NCBI GenBank assembly: GCA_964570655.1
Contig: CAZMYU010000003.1
Location: forward strand, 34,325 to 98,324
DNA length: 64,000 nucleotides
Source of the DNA: an uncultured Gammaproteobacteria bacterium
GTDB lineage: Bacteria > Patescibacteriota > Patescibacteriia > Patescibacteriales > UBA12465
Reading direction: 5' to 3'
Both the position numbers and the translations under genes were made by a program. Positions 7,716 to 52,126 of this stretch are shown here, piece by piece. The notes beneath the pieces are model-generated. The model was given only the letters and a program-made list of their open reading frames with translations. It did not search any database and was not told the origin of the DNA. Every line of letters begins with the position of its first letter. The stretch's first letter is position 1.

Positions 7716-7795
7716 ATTGAAAGATTGAAAATTGAAAATTGAAAAATTTTTTGATTAAGTAATCTTTTAATCTTTTAATCATTCAATCTTTTAAT
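7716..7795. repeat. Inverted array of ATTGAAA(G/A) octamers (long AT-rich hairpin), copy A
   Basis: Left arm ATTGAAAGATTGAAAATTGAAAATTGAAAAA (7716-7746), 14-nt loop TTTTTTGATTAAGT, right arm AATCTTTTAATCTTTTAATCATTCAATCTTTTAAT (7761-7795). Fills the ruvA-proS spacer. Same family as 51206-51287 and 59707/60175. Confidence 0.85.
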
Positions 7796-7799
7796 TAAC

Positions 7800-8375
7800 T
7801 TACTTTTTCATCTTTTTAAGTGCGCTTCTAATCCTTTCACTAGTATCGGTCATTTCTGTTGGTAAGCCCCGCAAAGCTTCTCTGGCTTCGGTCATTGAAT
7901 AGCCTAGAGCCATTAGAGCATCAATCTCATCTCCGGAAGCCATTGATAATCCACTATCACTGGCTGGTGTAAACATTTTATTGATCTTATCTTTTAGCTC
8001 CAAAACAATTCGCTCAGCTGTCTTAGCACCAATTCCAGAAACCTTGGTCAGTAGTCTGGAATCTCCGCGCACGATGGCTTCTTTGATATCTGAACCACTG
8101 GCAATATTTAATACTCCCAAAGCTGATTTAGGACCGATCCCGGAAATAGAAATAAGTAATTCAAATAATTCCAAATCTTCCAAATTTCTAAAACCATACA
8201 AATCCAAGGCTTCCTCTCGTACATATTGATGAGTAAAAACAGCCAAATCAGATTCTAGCTTGATGTCGCTCAAAAAAGTATCTGGAGCAAAAATACCATA
8301 ACCAATATTATTGACCAGTAAAACGAAATAATTAGAGGCTTTCAGTATTACCTGCCCCTTCAAAAATGAAATCAT
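7800..8375 (-). CDS. ruvA: Holliday junction DNA helicase subunit RuvA
   Basis: 191 aa. MISFLKGQV start, two helix-hairpin-helix motifs (ISGIGPKSA, VSGIGAKTAERI), C-terminal domain III. Confidence 0.9.
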   Translation of the reverse strand: MISFLKGQVILKASNYFVLLVNNIGYGIFAPDTFLSDIKLESDLAVFTHQYVREEALDLYGFRNLEDLELFELLISISGIGPKSALGVLNIASGSDIKEAIVRGDSRLLTKVSGIGAKTAERIVLELKDKINKMFTPASDSGLSMASGDEIDALMALGYSMTEAREALRGLPTEMTDTSERIRSALKKMKK

Positions 8376-8412: not shown

Positions 8413-8520
8413 CCCCACTTCGTTCCGCCAAGCCTACGGCTTCGCGGAACTTCGCGGGGCAAGGCCCCACCTCGCGCCGTGTCCTGCGTAGCTTTAGCGA
8501 AGCAGGAGGGCGAGGCCCTC
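8413..8520. repeat. GC-rich double-hairpin block between rplY terminator and ruvA promoter
   Basis: Strongly GC-rich island in AT-rich DNA. Hairpin a is gttccgccaagcctacggcttcgcggaac (8422-8450, 12 of 13 bp) with outer ccccac/gcgggg. Hairpin b is tcctgc-gtagctttagcgaa-gcagga followed by gggcgaggccctc (8482-8520). Hairpin b is related to 22285-22333. Confidence 0.7.
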
Positions 8521-11315: not shown

Positions 11316-12212
11316 ATGGCCAAAATTTCCGTGCCCAAAACAGTGCCCAAAAACAAAGTCGCCACTTATCTAAAAAACTACAATGCCATTACCCTAGGTA
11401 CCGGACGGCTATTTCTCTTAGCCGGTGATCAAAAAGTAGAACACTTAAATAGTGATTTTTTTGGACCCGGCATATCGGCTGAAGACGCTTACCCCGAGCA
11501 TTTGTTTAAAATCGCCAAATCGGCTCCAGTGGGCGCCCTAGCGATGCACCTGGGACTCATTTCTAAATATGCTGAAAATTATCCCAAGATAAATTATATC
11601 GTTAAGATGAATGCTAAAACCAATCTGAATCCTGATCCAGATACTGTTAGCCGATCGCTGATCACTGTGCAAGATGTAGTTAATTTCAAAAAGGAAACAA
11701 AATTAAAAATTGCTGGAGTTGGTTATACGGTTTATATTGGCAACAAATATGAAAGCCAAATGCTCACCGAAGCTTCGGAAATAATTTTGGAAGCGCAAAA
11801 AAACGGACTAGTCACAATCATCTGGATGTACCCCCGGGGTAAGAGCGTTAAAAACGACGAAGACATTCATACTATTGCCGGTGGAGCTGGAGTGGCCCTG
11901 TGTCTGGGAGCTGATTTTGTTAAAGTGAAATATCCTTATGACGAAAAAGAAGCCACTGCCAAAAAATTTACCGAGGTAGTCAAAGCCGCTGGGCAGACCA
12001 AGGTAATCTGTGCTGGTGGTTCCAAGCTGACTCCGGCCAAATTATTAAAAGATCTCTATTATCAAATTAATATCTCTAAAACCGGCGGAGTGGCCCTAGG
12101 TCGCAATCTACACCAATATTCCCTAGACCAGGCCATCAAACTGGCCAAAGCCGTGAAAGCCATTGTTAATGACAAAAAATCCCTCAAACAGGCCGAGAAA
12201 TTCTTGAAATAA
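11316..12212 (+). CDS. Class I fructose-bisphosphate aldolase, DhnA/FbaB (DeoC-like) family
   Basis: 298 aa. TIM-barrel aldolase pattern with Schiff-base lysine context GADFVKVKYP and GVALGRN near the C-terminus. Confidence 0.7.
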   Translation: MAKISVPKTVPKNKVATYLKNYNAITLGTGRLFLLAGDQKVEHLNSDFFGPGISAEDAYPEHLFKIAKSAPVGALAMHLGLISKYAENYPKINYIVKMNAKTNLNPDPDTVSRSLITVQDVVNFKKETKLKIAGVGYTVYIGNKYESQMLTEASEIILEAQKNGLVTIIWMYPRGKSVKNDEDIHTIAGGAGVALCLGADFVKVKYPYDEKEATAKKFTEVVKAAGQTKVICAGGSKLTPAKLLKDLYYQINISKTGGVALGRNLHQYSLDQAIKLAKAVKAIVNDKKSLKQAEKFLK

Positions 12213-12243
12213 ACCGAGCTAAACTCATTATAAGCCGAAAAAT

Positions 12244-12280
12244 AAAACCCGGAAGGCCATAAGGTCAACCGGGTTTTATA
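12244..12280. terminator. Bidirectional rho-independent terminator shared by aldolase (+) and thrS (-)
   Basis: aaaAAAACCCGGaaggccataaggtcaaCCGGGTTTTatattt. 9-bp stem with A-run upstream and T-run downstream. Confidence 0.75.
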
Positions 12281-12286
12281 TTTACT

Positions 12287-12314
12287 GGTGTCAGGCACCA
12301 AGGTGCCTGACACC
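12287..12314. repeat. GC-rich palindromic hairpin GGTGTCAGGCACC-aa-GGTGCCTGACACC (copy 1, 3' of thrS)
   Basis: Perfect 13-bp arms. The same 13-mer with the same TTTACTG flank recurs at 14141-14176. Confidence 0.9.
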
Positions 12315-12319
12315 TGGTT

Positions 12320-14128
12320 TTATTCATTTTTGGCCATCTTATCTTGAATCTCACTTATCAATTCTTCCCTACTCATATTCACCGTCTCCTTATCACCGCG
12401 ACGACGGACGGCTAAATCCTGAGATTCCATTTCTTTGTCGCCCACTACCAGCATATAAGGAATTTTTTCCATAGTCGCTTTTCTAATTTTGTTGCCAACA
12501 GTTTCATCATTAACATCCGTCTCTACTCTAAGTCCCTGAGCTATAAAATCTTCGGCTAATTTATTTACATACTCATAATGTTTTTCACCCACCGCGATTA
12601 TTTTAATTTGAGTTGGTGATAACCATAAAGGAAAAACTCCGGCATAATGTTCAATCAAAAGACCGATAAAGCGTTCAAAACTACCTAGTAAGGCCCGATG
12701 AAGCATGTAAGGTCTCTCAGCTTGACCACTAGAATTGGTATAATTCATATCAAAACGATCTGGTAGATTGAAATCAAATTGCAAAGTTGAACACTGCCAT
12801 TCACGACCCAAAACATCCTTGATTTTAAAATCTAATTTCGGACCATAGAAAGCAGCCTCGCCTAGTTCTTCTTTAAAGTTTAATTTTTTTTCTATTGCTA
12901 CTTTTCTTAAAATATTTTCGGTAAAATCCCAACCAGCATCCAGGCCAGCATATTTATCTTTGTTTTTTGGATCTCGGAGTGACAGATAAACATTCACAGA
13001 ATCCTCGGAGAATCCGAAAGATTTATAAATAAACAAAATGAAATCAATAGTCTTTTTAAGTTCTTCTTCGACCTGATCTTCTCGACAAATAATATGAGCA
13101 TCATCCTGAGTAAAACCTCGCACTCTGACTAGCCCCGACAACTCACCTTTTTTTTCAAAACGATAGACCGTGCCGCATTCAGCATAACGAATTGGCAAGT
13201 CTCGATAAGACCTCAAGCTATGATTATAAATTTCCACATGAAACGGACAATTCATTGGCTTAAGCAAATACTCTTCAGAAATTTCTGCTATTTTTTTCTG
13301 CTGTCTCTCTTCTAAAGTCTGACCGACTTCCAAAGGTGGATACATTGAGCTATTATAAAACCCCCAATGGCCAGAAGTTTCCCATAAATTGCGATGACCA
13401 ATATGCGGAGTCCTAACCAATTTATAATGATTCTTGAAATGAGCATCATACCAAAATTTTTCAATTTCATGCCAAATAATTGCTCCCTTCGGGTGCCATA
13501 AAGGCAAACCTAAACCAACCTGCTCATCAATATGAAACAAGTCTAATTCCTTACCCAGCTTGCGGTGGTCTCTCTTTTCGGCTTCTTCTAGAAGATTTAA
13601 ATATTTGACCAGTTCTTTTCGATCATTAAAAGCCAAACCATAAATCCGAGTGAGCATTTTGTTTTTTTCACTGCCCCGCCAATAGGCTCCGGCCAACTTG
13701 TGCAATTTGAAACCCTTGGGATCAATCTGTTTTAGATTGTCCACATGCGGTCCTCGACACAAATCACTAAAATCACCCAAGGTATAAAAACCAACTTCTT
13801 CTTCCCCGGCAATGATCAAATCACTAATAAGTTCGGCTTTATAAATATCACCAGCTTTTTCAGCCGATTTCAAAGCCGTCGAACTTTTGACGGTCGAATA
13901 TTTAAACTCTAGATCTTGCCCTAAAATCTCAACCATGAGATCTTGAATTTTGGCTAAATCCGCCTCCACAATTTTATCAGCCCCAAAATCAACATCATAA
14001 TAAAAACCATTATCAATAGCCGGACCAATAGCTAATTGAGCCTTCGGCCACAATTTCTTGATAGCCATCGCCAAGACATGAGCCAAAGAATGCCGTTTAA
14101 TCTCTAAGTTGTTAGAATTGTTTTTCAT
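12320..14128 (-). CDS. thrS: Threonyl-tRNA synthetase lacking the N-terminal TGS domain
   Basis: Starts directly in the editing domain (RHSLAHVLAMAIKKLWP...AIGPAIDNGFYYD). Class II core (FRFEKKGELSGLVRVRGFTQDDAH, HRALLGSFERF) and anticodon-binding C-terminus. The ORF-track GTG start at 14152 lies inside a hairpin, so ATG at 14128 (MKNNSNN) is preferred. Confidence 0.9.
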   Translation of the reverse strand: MKNNSNNLEIKRHSLAHVLAMAIKKLWPKAQLAIGPAIDNGFYYDVDFGADKIVEADLAKIQDLMVEILGQDLEFKYSTVKSSTALKSAEKAGDIYKAELISDLIIAGEEEVGFYTLGDFSDLCRGPHVDNLKQIDPKGFKLHKLAGAYWRGSEKNKMLTRIYGLAFNDRKELVKYLNLLEEAEKRDHRKLGKELDLFHIDEQVGLGLPLWHPKGAIIWHEIEKFWYDAHFKNHYKLVRTPHIGHRNLWETSGHWGFYNSSMYPPLEVGQTLEERQQKKIAEISEEYLLKPMNCPFHVEIYNHSLRSYRDLPIRYAECGTVYRFEKKGELSGLVRVRGFTQDDAHIICREDQVEEELKKTIDFILFIYKSFGFSEDSVNVYLSLRDPKNKDKYAGLDAGWDFTENILRKVAIEKKLNFKEELGEAAFYGPKLDFKIKDVLGREWQCSTLQFDFNLPDRFDMNYTNSSGQAERPYMLHRALLGSFERFIGLLIEHYAGVFPLWLSPTQIKIIAVGEKHYEYVNKLAEDFIAQGLRVETDVNDETVGNKIRKATMEKIPYMLVVGDKEMESQDLAVRRRGDKETVNMSREELISEIQDKMAKNE

Positions 14129-14140
14129 ATGTTTACTGCT

Positions 14141-14176
14141 GGTGTCAGGCACCTTTATCGCTTGGTGCCAGACACC
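14141..14176. repeat. GC-rich hairpin GGTGTCAGGCACC-10 nt-GGTGCCAGACACC (copy 2, 5' of thrS)
   Basis: Same 13-mer and TTTACTG(CT) flank as 12287-12314. One mismatch in the stem. Lies between the T-box terminator and the thrS ATG. Confidence 0.85.
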
Positions 14177-14356
14177 AAAAAATCTCGTTCCAATAATTTA
14201 AAAAATAAATTACTAGAACGAGATTTCTCCCGCGGTTCCATCTAGTTTTCCCGCCTGCGGTGGGACACTTACTTACAATATTTATAGTTTAGAAAAAATG
14301 ACCAAAATGGCCCAGTGTTTGGTAGACACCGCAATCACTACAAATATCTATTACTT
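14177..14356 (-). promoter_or_regulatory. T-box riboswitch leader of thrS (antiterminator/terminator clearly present; Stem I unresolved)
   Basis: Minus strand 14245-14213 reads CUAGA-UGGAACC-GCGGGA-GAAA-UCUCGU-UCUAG. That is helix A1, the 7-nt T-box bulge UGGAACC, and helix A2 with a GNRA loop. A competing terminator pairs AAAUCUCGUUC (plus inner UAAUUUA/UAAAUUA) with GAACGAGAUUU and is followed by UUUU (14177-14229). AGAGA and AGUGA motifs lie upstream. Confidence 0.8.
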
Positions 14357-14385
14357 ATTATAAATCTCTTATAGACAAAAGTCAA
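14357..14385 (-). promoter_or_regulatory. Candidate promoter TTGACT-N17-TATAAT for the thrS leader
   Basis: Minus strand TTGACTtttgtctataagagattTATAAT. It may instead lie inside T-box Stem I. An alternative TATAAT is at 14455-14460. Confidence 0.4.
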
Positions 14386-21285: not shown

Positions 21286-21320
21286 TTTTTATAAATTTTT
21301 AATCTGAGTCCAAACCCTTG

Positions 21321-21352
21321 CTCCCATACTCCTAATATTAGGAGTATGGGAG
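21321..21352. repeat. 32-bp perfect palindrome CTCCCATACTCCTAATATTAGGAGTATGGGAG (copy 1)
   Basis: Exact self-complementary 32-mer. An identical copy lies at 22101-22132, exactly 780 bp away. Confidence 0.95.
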
Positions 21353-21356
21353 CGGG

Positions 21357-21409: not shown

Positions 21410-22009
21410 TTAATTTAGCATTTGAGAGAATCTCACATACTCAGAGTCTATTGATGTATATGTTTTCGATAGATGATCTTTTTCACCGAGGATACAATTA
21501 ATCTCTTTGGCAAATCCCTCTCTAAATATACGAGCATTTTCGCCGGTCCATTTCAAAAAAATCTTGGGCATCAAATCTTTGGCCAACCTGACTTCTTCAA
21601 CATGCAAACCAGACTCGGCCTCCATCTTAATAACATGCGCAAAAATTTGTGCGAATCTAAGCGGTGATGAATCACGAGCAGCGGCTTCAAACAAAGAAAA
21701 TAAGAGATTCTTTGTTTTGACATTAACGATGGAATGGTCCAAATGGCAATAATAAGCAATAAAATTAATAGTAGACCAGCTATTAATTTTTTCGGTGAAA
21801 TACGAAACAATCCGGTTGCTTAATGCCGTCATTCTTTTCAGACTCATCTCTTTAAAGAGACTAATCACCTCCTCTTCGTCCTCCTTCATGGCATTGATTA
21901 AGGCAATTTCTAATTTTAAGTTTTTTGCCTTAATTGTTTTGATCATAGAGATAAGACCAAACAAAATAAATCCTCCGGCCAATAATGGCACCAACAATGA
22001 ACTAATCAT
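21410..22009 (-). CDS. Hypothetical protein with N-terminal TM, bracketed by identical palindromes
   Basis: 199 aa. TM LLVPLLAGGFILFGLISMI followed by a helical soluble part. No recognised motif. Has its own promoter and terminator. Confidence 0.55.
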   Translation of the reverse strand: MISSLLVPLLAGGFILFGLISMIKTIKAKNLKLEIALINAMKEDEEEVISLFKEMSLKRMTALSNRIVSYFTEKINSWSTINFIAYYCHLDHSIVNVKTKNLLFSLFEAAARDSSPLRFAQIFAHVIKMEAESGLHVEEVRLAKDLMPKIFLKWTGENARIFREGFAKEINCILGEKDHLSKTYTSIDSEYVRFSQMLN

Positions 22010-22095: not shown

Positions 22096-22100
22096 CCCCA

Positions 22101-22132
22101 CTCCCATACTCCTAATATTAGGAGTATGGGAG
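22101..22132. repeat. 32-bp perfect palindrome CTCCCATACTCCTAATATTAGGAGTATGGGAG (copy 2)
   Basis: Identical to 21321-21352. Here the palindrome extends by CA/TG to 36 bp. Confidence 0.95.
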
Positions 22133-22165
22133 TGAAGATAATTTTTAATTATTAATTTTTAATTC

Positions 22166-22284: not shown

Positions 22285-22333
22285 CGCCGTAGCTTGGCCG
22301 TCAGGCCATCTTAGCGAAGGCGGCCCGAGGCCC
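22285..22333 (-). other. Structured GC-rich 5' leader element of the tRNA-Leu transcript (related to 8482-8520)
   Basis: Minus strand GGGCCTCGGGCCGCC-TTCGCTAAga-TGGCC-tgac-GGCCA-AGCTAC-GGCGG abuts tRNA nt +1. It shares GGGCCTCG..., TTCGCTAA and AGCTAC with the ruvA-upstream element. The closing stem differs by compensatory changes (CCGCC/GGCGG versus CCTGC/GCAGG). Confidence 0.6.
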
Positions 22334-22351
22334 TTATTTAATTATTCAATA

Positions 22352-29200: not shown

Positions 29201-29674
29201 TTATCTAATAATAAGCCCGCCCTGGTATTTTAATTCATAAACCTTTTCCTTTTGGAAATAAATAACTTCAAGGCCTTCAAACTTGTCAACTGCTCCCTGA
29301 TTAGTATTTTGATATTCCCAATCCCCTTCTTGAAAATAATCTGGTCCGCGAAAAGGTTTTTCAATTTCAATTAAACGCAAAGCAGTTTGCAAAAACCTAT
29401 AAATATCTTTGGCCAGCACCTGGTCGGAAACAATTTGACCATAATAATTCATGCCCCAAATGGCTTTAGAGTTTTGCCAAACAATCTCTTCGCCAATAAA
29501 GGGATTATAACCAAAATAAGAGTCACGATATTTATAATCGCCGTCTTCCCAAATCAGCTCCTTGCTCCCATCAGCCAGAATCCTTTCTCCTCCCTCACCA
29601 CTACTAGCATAAGTCTGGAGCTTAGCTTGAAGTAAAAATTCGCTTCTGGGGTCTGACCCCATTTTTTGTTGCAT
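29201..29674 (-). CDS. Hypothetical protein; I recall similar W/Y/G-rich sequences annotated as DUF5680, unverified
   Basis: W/Y/G-rich soluble protein (YASSGEGGERILADGSKELIWEDGDYKYRDSYFGYNPFIGEE). Start is ambiguous: TTG 29701, ATG 29674 or ATG 29662. The last lies inside a repeated palindrome. Confidence 0.55.
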   Translation of the reverse strand: MQQKMGSDPRSEFLLQAKLQTYASSGEGGERILADGSKELIWEDGDYKYRDSYFGYNPFIGEEIVWQNSKAIWGMNYYGQIVSDQVLAKDIYRFLQTALRLIEIEKPFRGPDYFQEGDWEYQNTNQGAVDKFEGLEVIYFQKEKVYELKYQGGLIIR

Positions 29675-29727
29675 ATTAAAAAATACCTTATTTTTTAACA
29701 AAATTTAGTTGGGGTCTGACCCCATTT
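29647..29727. repeat. 18-bp direct repeat TGGGGTCTGACCCCATTT x2 (each holds a 13-nt palindrome and an ATG on the minus strand)
   Basis: Copies at 29647-29664 and 29710-29727. Minus-strand reading is AAATGGGGTCAGACCCCA. The upstream copy opens a 6-codon mini-ORF MGSDPN-stop, the downstream copy is in frame with the 29201 gene (MGSDPRSEF). Confidence 0.85.
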
Positions 29728-36657: not shown

Positions 36658-36687
36658 CTGGAGCCTGGCTCCAGAGCCAGGCTCCAG
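36658..36687. repeat. Perfect 13-bp-stem GC-rich hairpin CTGGAGCCTGGCT-ccag-AGCCAGGCTCCAG
   Basis: In the divergent holB/purC spacer. Its 3' end directly abuts the TTGACT -35 of purC. Confidence 0.85.
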
Positions 36688-50376: not shown

Positions 50377-51198
50377 TTAAACAATTAAATTTTTAAAGTT
50401 ATCAAGCTGCTCATAAATAGCCACTGGATAAAAAGATTTGTCCTGATTCATATCCAAAATCTTAATCTTAAAATCAGTTTTGGGGTCAAAAGGATATTGT
50501 TTGTTTGAGATAGCCGCTTCTAATATTTCCGGCTGAGCCAAATGAGCGAAATCACTTTGGTGAGCATAAGAATTAAGCTTGCTAATCATCTCCGGAACCG
50601 ATAAACACCAAGAAAAATGACAACCAGCGATAGGCTGATAGAGCCGGCCAAAATAACGCCATTGGCCAGGATATTTATTTTTGTAAACTTTGGCCAAGCA
50701 AGCAATCGGACCAATAAATTTGTTGTTCTCCCAAAAATAATTAATTTTGTAAAAAAATTGATAGAGCGAAAATAAATAACTTTTGGGCTGCCAAAAATAT
50801 TTTCTATTTTTGAGTTTTTCGATAATGATAGGATAGACGGATCGAAAAATAATCTCATCAGCATCCACAGAAAAGACAATATCATCATCATGCAAGTCCA
50901 CCTGACTAGCAAAATAACCGCGAATCACCTGCTCGTTGGCATGAGCCAACTTGGCATTGTCTTTGGCTGGGCTAACTAAGTCAGTCAAGTCGCCAGTGAC
51001 ATAAATAATCTTGGCTCTTTCGGCTTCAGTAAATTCTGCTAAATATTTGGAGAAAATAAGCTCTCGTTTTTCTCCCACATGATTATAATTGAATTCGCAA
51101 ATAATAAACTTATCAACAAAATCGCCAGCTTCCGCTAAATTGAGTTTGAGATATTTTATTTCTGGCTCGCTATAAAAAAGTGTTTTGAGATAAATCAT
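50377..51198 (-). CDS. Putative GT17-like glycosyltransferase
   Basis: 273 aa. The N-terminal pattern (FYSEPEIKYLKLNLAEAGDFVDKFIICEFNYNHVGEKRE) resembles bacterial GT17 homologues. Weak, by-eye call. Confidence 0.4.
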   Translation of the reverse strand: MIYLKTLFYSEPEIKYLKLNLAEAGDFVDKFIICEFNYNHVGEKRELIFSKYLAEFTEAERAKIIYVTGDLTDLVSPAKDNAKLAHANEQVIRGYFASQVDLHDDDIVFSVDADEIIFRSVYPIIIEKLKNRKYFWQPKSYLFSLYQFFYKINYFWENNKFIGPIACLAKVYKNKYPGQWRYFGRLYQPIAGCHFSWCLSVPEMISKLNSYAHQSDFAHLAQPEILEAAISNKQYPFDPKTDFKIKILDMNQDKSFYPVAIYEQLDNFKNLIV

Positions 51199-51205
51199 AT
51201 AATAA

Positions 51206-51287
51206 ATTGAAAATTGAAAGATTGAAAATTGAAAAATTTCTTAATTAAATTAATCTTTCAATCGTTCAATCTTTTAATCCTTCAATC
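51206..51287. repeat. Inverted array of ATTGAAA(G/A) octamers, copy B
   Basis: Left arm ATTGAAAATTGAAAGATTGAAAATTGAAAAA, loop TTTCTTAATTAAATT, right arm AATCTTTCAATCGTTCAATCTTTTAATCCTTCAATC. Fills the spacer between two GT genes. Confidence 0.85.
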
Positions 51288-51289
51288 AC

Positions 51290-52126
51290 TTAAAATGTTT
51301 TCCATAAATTATAATACTCATTTCCACCAGCTAGCAACTGACACCAAAATTTGTCATTTTTGGCGGTAATATAATCCAACCAATTCTGAGAGTGAATAAT
51401 TTTTTTAGGCTGGCCTAGAATTCCACCCCAAATCGAAAAGGTGCTCGGACTAGAAATCAAAATATCGCACTGCGACATCTGATAAAGATCGTAGATCGGC
51501 TCAGCCCAGTAGTTGCCAGGAATTATTCCAGCCACCGGCAAAGTCTCGATAAATTCCCTGGTCTTGATATAGGCTTCAAATTCCTCATCATCAGTAAAAA
51601 TATGCAAATAAATTTTCTGGGTAGGATAAGTCGCCAAACAAAATTTTAGAGCTTCTATATAATAATCGGACTTCAAAACCGCCTGCAAATCCCAACTAAA
51701 AAAATCACCGCCCCGAAAATGAAGACCAATGTTTAAGACCTCTTTGCCCTGCGGTATATTTGACTGACTATAAATACTTTTAATCTTTATAAAATTATTG
51801 GGGTTCGTAAAACAATAATCAAAAAAAGTGTCGCCCAAAATAGGCGGAAGCAATTTGATGTTTTTATTCTGGGCGTCAAGATCGGCTATTAACTTTAATA
51901 AATCACTGGGCGCCTGACTAGCTATCAAAGCTGGGGTTAATTTGAATTTTTTATTTAATATTTTAGGAGCTGAGCTGGTTTTGTTCATTTCCTCAAAATA
52001 TTTTTGATCTTTCAAATCCGGATGATAGTAAGTCAAGCCAGTCTGCTGCGCTAATTGTCTCAAAAAATTATAAGCAAAAAGTCGATTGCCCAAACGTCCT
52101 GGATTTTCTTTGTTGATAAAAATCAT
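51290..52126 (-). CDS. GT11-like (alpha-1,2-fucosyltransferase-like) glycosyltransferase
   Basis: 278 aa. GRLGNRLFAYNF N-terminal motif and IGLHFRGGDF (compare the GT11 HxRRGDY motif). Confidence 0.5.
   Translation of the reverse strand: MIFINKENPGRLGNRLFAYNFLRQLAQQTGLTYYHPDLKDQKYFEEMNKTSSAPKILNKKFKLTPALIASQAPSDLLKLIADLDAQNKNIKLLPPILGDTFFDYCFTNPNNFIKIKSIYSQSNIPQGKEVLNIGLHFRGGDFFSWDLQAVLKSDYYIEALKFCLATYPTQKIYLHIFTDDEEFEAYIKTREFIETLPVAGIIPGNYWAEPIYDLYQMSQCDILISSPSTFSIWGGILGQPKKIIHSQNWLDYITAKNDKFWCQLLAGGNEYYNLWKTF

Follow-up and report, generated by a model that had tools for sequence, protein, structure and literature searches.

Why should a single gene be bracketed by two matching GC-rich hairpins? 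The question is raised by thrS, the gene for threonyl-tRNA synthetase (ThrRS), in a 64,000-nucleotide stretch of DNA from an uncultured bacterium (contig CAZMYU010000003.1 of GenBank assembly GCA_964570655.1, positions 34,325 to 98,324 of the forward strand) that was deposited as a gammaproteobacterium and is placed by GTDB in the Patescibacteriota, within the Candidate Phyla Radiation (CPR). This entire stretch is referred to here as the window. The two hairpins, termed copies A and B, are probably lineage-specific insertions of a repetitive extragenic palindromic (REP)-type repeat, cognate to a widespread clade of REP-associated tyrosine transposases (RAYTs), in the gaps beside thrS. An earlier note, written from the sequence of the window, had described two hairpins around the gene; both were found at those positions, and their arms and folds were computed. 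The elements concerned are the following.

12285-12316, minus strand: REP-type hairpin copy A, between the thrS stop codon and the terminator.
12278-12286, minus strand: conserved tail of copy A, AG-TAAATAT, common to copy B by hand alignment.
14140-14177, minus strand: REP-type hairpin copy B in the thrS 5' leader, with one central mismatch.
14129-14140, minus strand: conserved tail of copy B, AGCAG-TAAACAT, the entire 12-nt spacer up to the ATG.
12320-14128, minus strand: thrS (602 aa), native to its locus and encoding a protein without an N-terminal TGS domain.

Copies A and B have the stem GGTGTCAGGCACC/GGTGCCTGACACC in common, together with a tail of 9-12 nt. On the minus strand copy A reads CCAGGTGTCAGGCACC-tt-GGTGCCTGACACCAG; its arms (12302-12314 and 12287-12299) are complementary at 13 of 13 positions around a 2-nt spacer, and the predicted fold (-24.3 kcal/mol, z = -6.5) has 12 bp in its stem and 4 nt in its loop. 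Pairing sets in 3 nt past the TAA stop codon at 12320-12322. Copy B reads GGTGTCTGGCACC-aagcgataaa-GGTGCCTGACACC on the same strand; its arms, 14164-14176 and 14141-14153, enclose a loop of 10 nt and pair with a single U.U mismatch at their centre (predicted fold -24.0 kcal/mol, z = -4.8). The terminator of the leader (14180-14226) has its U-tract immediately 5' of copy B, and 12 nt separate the end of this copy from the thrS ATG at 14128, not the 13 nt given before. The right arm of copy B also contains a spurious GTG start, at 14152, so that the 5' copy explains the GTG-extended open reading frame (ORF), as had been supposed.

The minus-strand flank is GGTGCCTGACACC-AG(CAG)-TAAAYAT in both copies, corresponding to a shared plus-strand flank of ATRTTTACTG, while the loops and the opposite flank differ. 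The TTTACTG flank that the earlier note had reported is thus real, and it is this common tail that defines A and B as copies of one element in a single orientation. The right arm and tail are better kept between the two copies than the remaining element. Their alignment was made by hand; MAFFT placed the copies in the wrong register because the arms of the hairpin resemble each other, each 13-nt arm being a nested quasi-palindrome, GGTGYC-W-GRCACC. The shared tail may belong to the mobilised unit or mark a preferred target site; it suggests that one copy gave rise to the other, or that a common unit or target preference lies behind both. Beyond A and B, no further copy of the stem 13-mer, exact or with one mismatch, was found in the 64-kb window.

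Reading the two hairpins requires the remaining features of the thrS locus.

14180-14347, minus strand: reduced T-box leader with an ACC (Thr) specifier and AGATGGAACCGCG box, below the gathering score of Rfam RF00230.
14180-14226, minus strand: AT-rich leader terminator, from a promoter and terminator scan.
14357-14385, minus strand: promoter-like site of thrS, from the same scan.
12238-12283, both strands: bidirectional intrinsic terminator, AAAAATAAAACCCGG...CCGGGTTTTATATTT, common to thrS and the convergent DeoC-family gene.
11316-12212, plus strand: convergent DeoC-family aldolase gene.

The leader matches RF00230 with 30.1 bits (E = 3e-4) against a gathering score of 93. The specifier, the AGATGGAACCGCG box and the terminator expected of a T-box are all present, and the T-box call stands because the ACC specifier and the box recur in five of six relatives. 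These relatives are Patescibacteria thrS loci (L001, L002 and L243-L246) whose ThrRS is 67-73% identical to that of the window, a typical member of its CPR clade with its nearest relative at 73% identity; by its ThrRS homologues the source organism belongs to the Patescibacteria. The gene order parA-parB-dnaE-hypothetical-thrS is whole in L243, and dnaE-hypothetical-thrS is found in L002; owing to this shared upstream synteny, thrS is considered native to its locus. The hairpin motif is absent within 10 kb on either side of thrS in all six relatives, the syntenic L243 included, and none of the six carries a GC-rich hairpin between the T-box terminator and the ATG. Their terminator-to-ATG spacer is 10-100 nt long, AT-rich and devoid of a Shine-Dalgarno sequence, and five of them keep the T-box with the same ACC specifier and GGTGGAACCGCG box. 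On the 3' side of the stop codon an ordinary terminator is found in L001 and an unrelated palindrome in L002. Since none of the six relatives carries them, both hairpins are taken to be lineage-specific additions, copy B being an apparent insertion of ~36 nt into the leader. The comparison of thrS flanks in related genomes that the earlier note had called for thus found neither hairpin in any of the six, and the idea of a thrS-specific arrangement was not borne out, the stem being widespread elsewhere and tied to REP-associated transposases.

Some further properties of these loci were recorded. A Shine-Dalgarno sequence is absent from all seven thrS genes (window and six relatives), and the tail of copy B (14129-14140) contains none; one does precede other genes of the window, such as the AAGGAGG ahead of 36773. 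The N-terminal TGS domain is missing from the ThrRS of the window and of all six relatives. Six of the seven CPR genomes have a T-box leader with an ACC specifier, in each case far under the Rfam gathering score. In L244 (10001-10090) the start annotated for a 628-aa ThrRS is the ATG within the T-box sequence (gctagATGGAACCGCG). Variants of ThrRS with 628 aa in the protein database are apparently mis-called in this way, the leader being read as a 28-aa N-terminal extension.

The stem itself is by no means restricted to thrS. A species-representative genome collection was scanned with a degenerate double-arm pattern and metagenomes with an exact-arm pattern, each scan yielding at least 120 loci (metagenome contigs with a GC content of 0.37 to 0.74); Patescibacteria genomes lie outside the part of the genome collection covered by the degenerate-pattern listing. 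In total, a 13/13-identical stem occurs at 240 or more loci of 37-74% GC in at least ten phyla. Hosts among the matches listed, to which the following figures also refer, include Bacillaceae, Clostridia, Planctomycetota, Thermoleophilia/Gaiellales, Acidimicrobiia, Gamma-, Beta- and Alphaproteobacteria, Acidobacteriota, Myxococcota and Spirochaetota. Loops and flanks vary between loci, at least three motif copies stand within 8 kb or less at 71 of 240 loci, and copies usually stand just past stop codons, at 7-15 nt. On low-GC contigs, 89% of the hairpins have a T-tract on at least one side. The centre base pair in the 120 metagenome loci is A..T in ~95, T..A in ~12 and a mismatch in ~12. Because the centre base covaries so as to keep pairing, the folded stem, and not a pair of independent sites, appears to be maintained. 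As a calibration, other GC-rich perfect hairpins with stems of at least 13 bp occur at ~20 per Mb, and after removal of same-organism duplicates and offset variants no other stem 13-mer was common to unrelated loci.

Several searches for the element returned nothing. The hairpin had no match in 2.9 million viral contigs, and the right arm plus tail (GGTGCCTGACACCAG N0-3 TAAAYAT) had none in metagenomes. No Rfam family covers the hairpin in the window or in 15 hairpin loci, sub-threshold matches to rteR and OrzO-P being dismissed as terminator-like noise, and a full-text literature search for variants of the 13-mer retrieved only unrelated eukaryotic primers and oligos. Two variations on the motif were seen in other genomes. 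In Bacillaceae (L007, L010, L024, L027, L041, L049, L063, L090 and L103) the 13-bp stem is built around a conserved inner palindrome, ATGTGAAtttTTCACAT; the element of Neobacillus, Priestia and Bacillus has A- and T-tracts at its flanks and resembles a dispersed family of bidirectional terminators, with two copies in single genomes. In several high-GC genomes the palindromic 13-mer GGTGTC(A/T)GACACC forms tandem direct arrays with periods of 21-56 nt, which are not hairpins (L081 1487-1604, L070 4817-4892, L117 4901-4985 and L037 7819-7959).

The hairpin is linked to transposase genes in a number of genomes. A set of 7,958 stop-to-stop ORFs from the listed loci, the window and the CPR relatives was screened, using RAYT and IS200 sequences as queries and then a profile made from the confirmed matches. 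Ten Y1-transposase ORFs (eight of them non-redundant) were detected in hairpin loci, and HUH, [WF]Q and Y..NP motifs are present in these transposases. Pfam PF01797 was confirmed in all four that were tested (38-60 bits, cutoff 23), and NCBIfam NF047646, the REP-associated tyrosine transposase family, was the best match in nine of nine (35-84 bits). In seven of these nine it was the sole NCBIfam match; the other two also gave weak IS200 matches at 17-20 bits. The only match to a solved structure was a weak one to the E. coli TnpA-REP (4ER8, E = 0.048). The hairpin stands on both sides of the transposase gene in L183, L170/L210 and L016, overlaps its 3' end in L183 and L178, and is 159-689 nt away from it in L140, L217 and the Anaerocolumna locus L085. 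Hairpin-flanked transposase genes are the arrangement that defines REP-RAYT systems; a REPtron of this kind, with a RAYT gene flanked by the same hairpin, was found in other genomes and not in the window. The earlier note had itself named a ubiquitous REP-like element as the outcome that would undo its interpretation, and this is essentially what was observed, the stem being multi-copy, widespread and linked to REP-associated transposases.

A route by which the copies could have reached thrS can be drawn from what is published for the enzyme family, namely that at the replication fork a RAYT recognises and binds the hairpin when it folds in DNA that is transiently single-stranded, and then cuts and rejoins the DNA next to it. 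If the same applies to the window, this would have dispersed copies into noncoding gaps. Copy A would have entered the convergent-terminator gap just past the thrS stop codon, a position where the six relatives have none, and copy B, with the same tail of 9-12 nt, the long T-box leader just before the thrS ATG. The GC skew of the plus strand is negative across the window and 55 of its 59 genes are on the minus strand, which indicates that the window belongs to one replichore; the same orientation of A and B relative to replication would fit a strand-specific, single-strand mechanism. The window is tightly packed: it has 13 intergenic gaps of at least 90 nt, and 6 of the 78 possible pairs of gaps flank a single gene, so that two copies placed at random in permissive gaps would be expected to bracket one gene in ~8% of cases. 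The two thrS gaps (107 nt and 358 nt) are among the largest in the window.

A number of observations weigh against this account. Quentin et al. (2018, PMC6006769) define a REP by a GTAG/GTGG guide, 0-2 nt 5' of the stem foot, and a hairpin whose GC-rich, fully paired basal stem has 7-20 bp and whose loop has 2-5 nt; they call REPs species-specific. Copy A has the corresponding hairpin (extragenic, with a perfect stem of 12-13 bp and a loop of 2-4 nt), and copy B departs from it in its 10-nt loop and one central mismatch. No GTAG or GTGG guide was found at the stem foot of A or B on either strand, the foot reading GGTG...CACC. There are two clear copies in 64 kb, plus three possibly related sites, and the ORF screen found no Y1 transposase in the window, nor any in the loci of the CPR relatives. 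Most transposases of the hairpin loci score under the 80-bit equivalog cutoff of NF047646, with one above it, and the count of at least 240 loci is a lower bound and not a fold enrichment. As REP-bearing genomes are reported to be larger than average (PMC6006769), a small CPR genome is an unusual REP host. Finally, the assignment to TnpA-REP subclass 2.1, taken up below, would be a fit by motif comparison and not by phylogeny.

Among the other explanations, a thrS-specific post-transcriptional device has the most to recommend it: the mature thrS mRNA would be guarded at either end by a matched hairpin, or the two would pair across its 5' and 3' ends. Both copies do lie within the predicted thrS transcript, as the earlier note had it, both are very stable, and the right arm and tail are the better conserved part of the element; a random expectation of ~8% also makes the bracketing of one gene mildly non-random. 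Cross-pairing is energetically feasible. For two free molecules the pairing of A with B is predicted at -57.3 kcal/mol compared with -48.3 kcal/mol for the local hairpins, a gain of ~9 kcal/mol that excludes closure of the 1.8-kb loop. Pairing of the 5' and 3' ends is thus possible in the thermodynamic model, where it must compete with co-transcriptional local folding, copy B folding long before copy A gets transcribed. Such cross-pairing is also trivially expected, because A and B are two copies of one hairpin. In Bacillus subtilis the 5' protecting hairpin of thrS is the T-box terminator itself, and the functional thrS mRNA, in work attributed to Condon et al. 1996, is reportedly bounded by stable hairpins. 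The B. subtilis gene resembles that of the window in being T-box-controlled, and the cutting of its leader by the endonucleases RNase J/Y (PMC3542257) speaks for a device of this type. The extra 5' hairpin of the window differs from the B. subtilis situation in being an inserted repeat that is not kept in relatives. All six relatives manage without the hairpins and with an unstructured spacer, and five of them keep the T-box; in other genomes the identical stem recurs in multiple copies and in association with transposases; and a normal terminator already stands beyond copy A. A dedicated thrS device is therefore held to be unlikely.

Effects on the thrS mRNA are nevertheless plausible if A and B are inserted REP-type repeats, and they would be by-products of insertion and not a conserved regulatory design. 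Both copies would be co-transcribed with thrS. Copy A, in the 3' untranslated region (UTR) and 5' of the terminator, should impede 3' exonucleases, and it may also impede terminating ribosomes because it lies within 15 nt of the stop codon. For E. coli REPs within that distance of a stop codon, stalled ribosomes and lowered translation have been reported (Liang et al. 2015, cited in PMC12306157). On the opposite strand copy A could provide the convergent aldolase gene with a second, reserve terminator. Copy B would place a stem of -24 kcal/mol at 12 nt 5' of a start codon that lacks a Shine-Dalgarno sequence, and so would probably alter initiation, the stability of the 5' end, or both: it could lower initiation or, should the leader undergo cleavage like that of B. 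subtilis (PMC3542257), could instead protect the new 5' end. The thrS pair would then offer a convenient natural test of how hairpins act on mRNA stability, termination and translation without a Shine-Dalgarno sequence. As probable footprints of a mobile element, the two hairpins should not be read by annotators as thrS operators.

It is rather improbable that A and B are ordinary intrinsic terminators which came to share a stem by local duplication or by chance, without any link to a transposase. The case for this explanation comes from copy A, which on the plus strand is followed by TGGTTTTATT, has a terminator-like score and faces the convergent DeoC-family gene; moreover, most of the low-GC copies listed resemble bidirectional terminators. 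The earlier note had stated that neither hairpin has a U-tract in the thrS direction. This is correct, as no U-tract suited to an intrinsic terminator follows A or B in that direction, and it is incomplete, given that copy A is terminator-like on the plus strand and that the genuine bidirectional terminator at 12238-12283 lies beyond it. Copy B has no downstream T-tract on either strand, which speaks against a terminator there. Chance is very unlikely to account for a 13/13 match to a stem found beside RAYT genes in several lineages, considering that GC-rich stems of at least 13 bp number ~20 per Mb and that no other such stem is common to the unrelated loci listed.

Still less credit is given to the possibility that each 13-mer is a DNA operator bound by a dimeric protein, with DNA looping between the sites that flank thrS. 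Each arm is a nested palindrome, other palindromes of the window sit just upstream of -35 boxes, and the motif forms tandem direct arrays in other genomes, all of which would suit a protein-binding site. Against it, the centre-to-centre spacing of the 13-mers is unequal (15 bp versus 23 bp), neither thrS copy is located at a promoter, the centre base covaries to keep pairing, and copies elsewhere stand past stop codons and have T-tracts. Other candidate sites were also rejected. An operator of the E. coli thrS type, mimicking the anticodon of tRNA-Thr, is not supported, as the loops (UU/CUUG and AAGCGAUAAA) lack NGU and the hairpin is absent from relatives. Only weak hexamers were found for a sigma-54 or sigma-70 promoter inside the arms, a GGUGUCU 7-mer shared with T-box stem I is not significant as an alternative pairing, and the consensus sequences of Chi, dif, parS, matS and DasR/NagR-like sites do not match.

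That the hairpins are recombination sites bounding a thrS cassette into which the ORF was swapped, like integron attC sites or IS200/IS605 ends, is highly implausible: two same-orientation hairpins do bound exactly one ORF and leave the T-box outside, but thrS and its upstream synteny are native, its ThrRS is typical of the CPR clade, the T-box specifier is still threonine, a Pfam scan of ten neighbouring genes found no integrase or recombinase, the window encodes no Y1 transposase, and both a ThrRS congruent with its neighbours and the same gene order without hairpins in relatives were largely seen. An integron cassette with an attC site in particular was rejected, with no integrase nearby and with thrS keeping its native synteny, its own T-box and its own promoter.

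Other repeats and palindromes in the window were surveyed for a relation to copies A and B, and two of these sites are closest in sequence.

29648-29723, minus strand: two direct copies of the 18-nt AAATGGGGTCAGACCCCA, right after the secA stop codon and in the first codons of the next ORF (MQQKMGSDP...).
36658-36687: hairpin with a perfect 14-bp stem, CTGGAGCCTGGCTC-ca-GAGCCAGGCTCCAG, directly beside the -35-like TTGACT of a SAICAR-synthetase (purC-like) gene.

The second of these (-27 to -29 kcal/mol) lies in the divergent region between the holB-like and purC-like genes, and its 13-mer (GGAGCCWGGCTCC) fits the skeleton GGNGYCWGRCNCC. The duplication of GGGGTCTGACCCC near the secA stop was confirmed at 29648 and 29711. 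Both this sequence and GGAGCCTGGCTCC at 36660 depart from the family motif only at positions 3 and 11, where the changes are symmetric. In the whole window the skeleton GGNGYCWGRCNCC has 7 matches versus 0.03 expected, for a pattern chosen after the sites had been seen. The hint of the earlier note that 29648/29711 belong to one element family with the thrS hairpins is consistent with this excess and with the fit of GGGGTCAG to the GGGGWSAS consensus of RAYT-flanking repeats (PMC3733652), evidence that is indirect and, for the skeleton, post hoc. The palindromes at 29648/29711 and 36658-36687 are possibly related motif variants and are offered as a lead only. The secA stop region also reads GGTGCCTAGTAAAT, resembling the right arm and tail of the hairpin minus GACACC, and the GGTGCC in it encodes the conserved C-terminal Gly-Ala of SecA.

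Another perfect palindrome, with a TCCCATACTCCTAATATTAGGAGTATGGGA core, occurs at 21320-21353 and 22099-22134 on either side of a 199-aa ORF (21410-22009) that has no Pfam match. The two copies are just upstream of -35-like boxes, TTTGGA before parA and TTGACA before the 199-aa ORF. This second gene of the window to be bracketed by identical palindromes looks like a case of a shared operator. An unrelated 18-bp GC palindrome is found 45 nt upstream of parA in L243. A further repeat family consists of an AT-rich inverted repeat, (ATTGAAA)n ... (TTTCAAT)n, with two copies, at 7716-7795 and 51191-51292, in separate intergenic gaps of ~90 nt. Two GC-rich noncoding tracts, at 8421-8495 (upstream of the gene at 7800-8375) and at 22285-22340 (immediately upstream of tRNA-Leu), have AAGGGCCTCG...CTTCGCTAA in common; the first of them also holds a 13-bp hairpin with one mismatch at 8422-8450. 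A CTTCGCTAAAGCTTCGGCGG string similar to these tracts is present near the thrS start in L002.

The remaining question is to which of the known systems the thrS hairpins are closest. TIRYT genes, whose repeat units are also called 'TIRtrons', are RAYT-like and, according to Di Nocera et al. (2013, PMC3733652), are flanked not by GTAG-tagged REPs but by inverted repeats sharing GGGGWSAS, some of them self-complementary or 'double palindromic', some overlapping the 3' end of the gene and some forming moderately abundant families. Quentin et al. (2018, PMC6006769) equate TIRYTs with TnpA-REP subclass 2.1, which is group 1 of the RAYTs of Bertels. This subclass is described there as the second largest and the one not confined to a single taxon, with a signature of NHVH/NH[YF]H, W[EQ]/FQ and YIELNP/Y[IV]HLNP plus a C-terminal helix-turn-helix (HTH) extension. 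The Y1/HUH genes of the hairpin loci are likewise flanked by GC-rich, sometimes self-complementary repeats, the repeat sometimes overlaps the 3' end of the gene, and the NH[IVWF]H, [WF]Q and Y..NP motifs fit the signature; the spread across phyla is also shared. The published TIRYT repeat consensus GGGG[AT][CG]A[CG] agrees with GGTGTCAG of the thrS copies at 7 of 8 positions (position 3 being T, not G) and with GGGGTCAG at 29648/29711 at 8 of 8 (minus strand). The differences are that the exact stem GGTGYCWGRCACC does not appear in the available published text on TIRYT repeats, and that compact hairpins flank the genes here, whereas no REP-like sequences could be identified for subclass 2.1 according to PMC6006769. 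A Patescibacteria host is also outside the coverage of both surveys, and there is no transposase in this window.

The link between stem and transposase clade matters in this respect, as earlier surveys reported only loose inverted repeats (GGGGWSAS) or no REP-like hairpin at all for this clade. If it holds, it would provide a searchable DNA signature for the most widespread RAYT subclass, and it would place REP-type repeats in the UTRs of an essential gene belonging to a reduced CPR genome. A more ambitious combination, that a streamlined Patescibacteria genome has an active or recent RAYT/REP system, that the stem GGTGYCWGRCACC is the missing hairpin of subclass 2.1, and that the thrS pair has been retained to tune ThrRS downstream of the T-box, is unlikely when its parts are taken jointly. 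Were it true, the presence of the stem across at least ten phyla would contradict the species-specificity of REPs.

Classical REPs of E. coli and Pseudomonas, including the REP/REPIN-RAYT systems, owe their mobility to a Y1 transposase encoded by a single-copy gene that has the repeats on its flanks (Bertels & Rainey 2011, PMC3116915; Messing et al. 2012, PMC3479197). Like the thrS hairpins, they are short, extragenic, GC-rich hairpins present in multiple copies and often just 3' of genes. The thrS hairpins differ from them in having no GTAG/GTGG guide and only two copies in the window, and their stem is common across phyla where classical REPs are called species-specific. The paired DNA-uptake sequences of Neisseria and Haemophilus are short GC-rich inverted pairs forming terminator-like hairpins after genes, and the recurrence of a specific short sequence in this form is a point of likeness; they are lineage-restricted and linked to competence, whereas the present stem is linked to transposases and found across many phyla. 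By the motifs and repeat arrangements compared here, the closest published class for the thrS hairpins is that of the TIRYT/TnpA-REP subclass 2.1 repeats.

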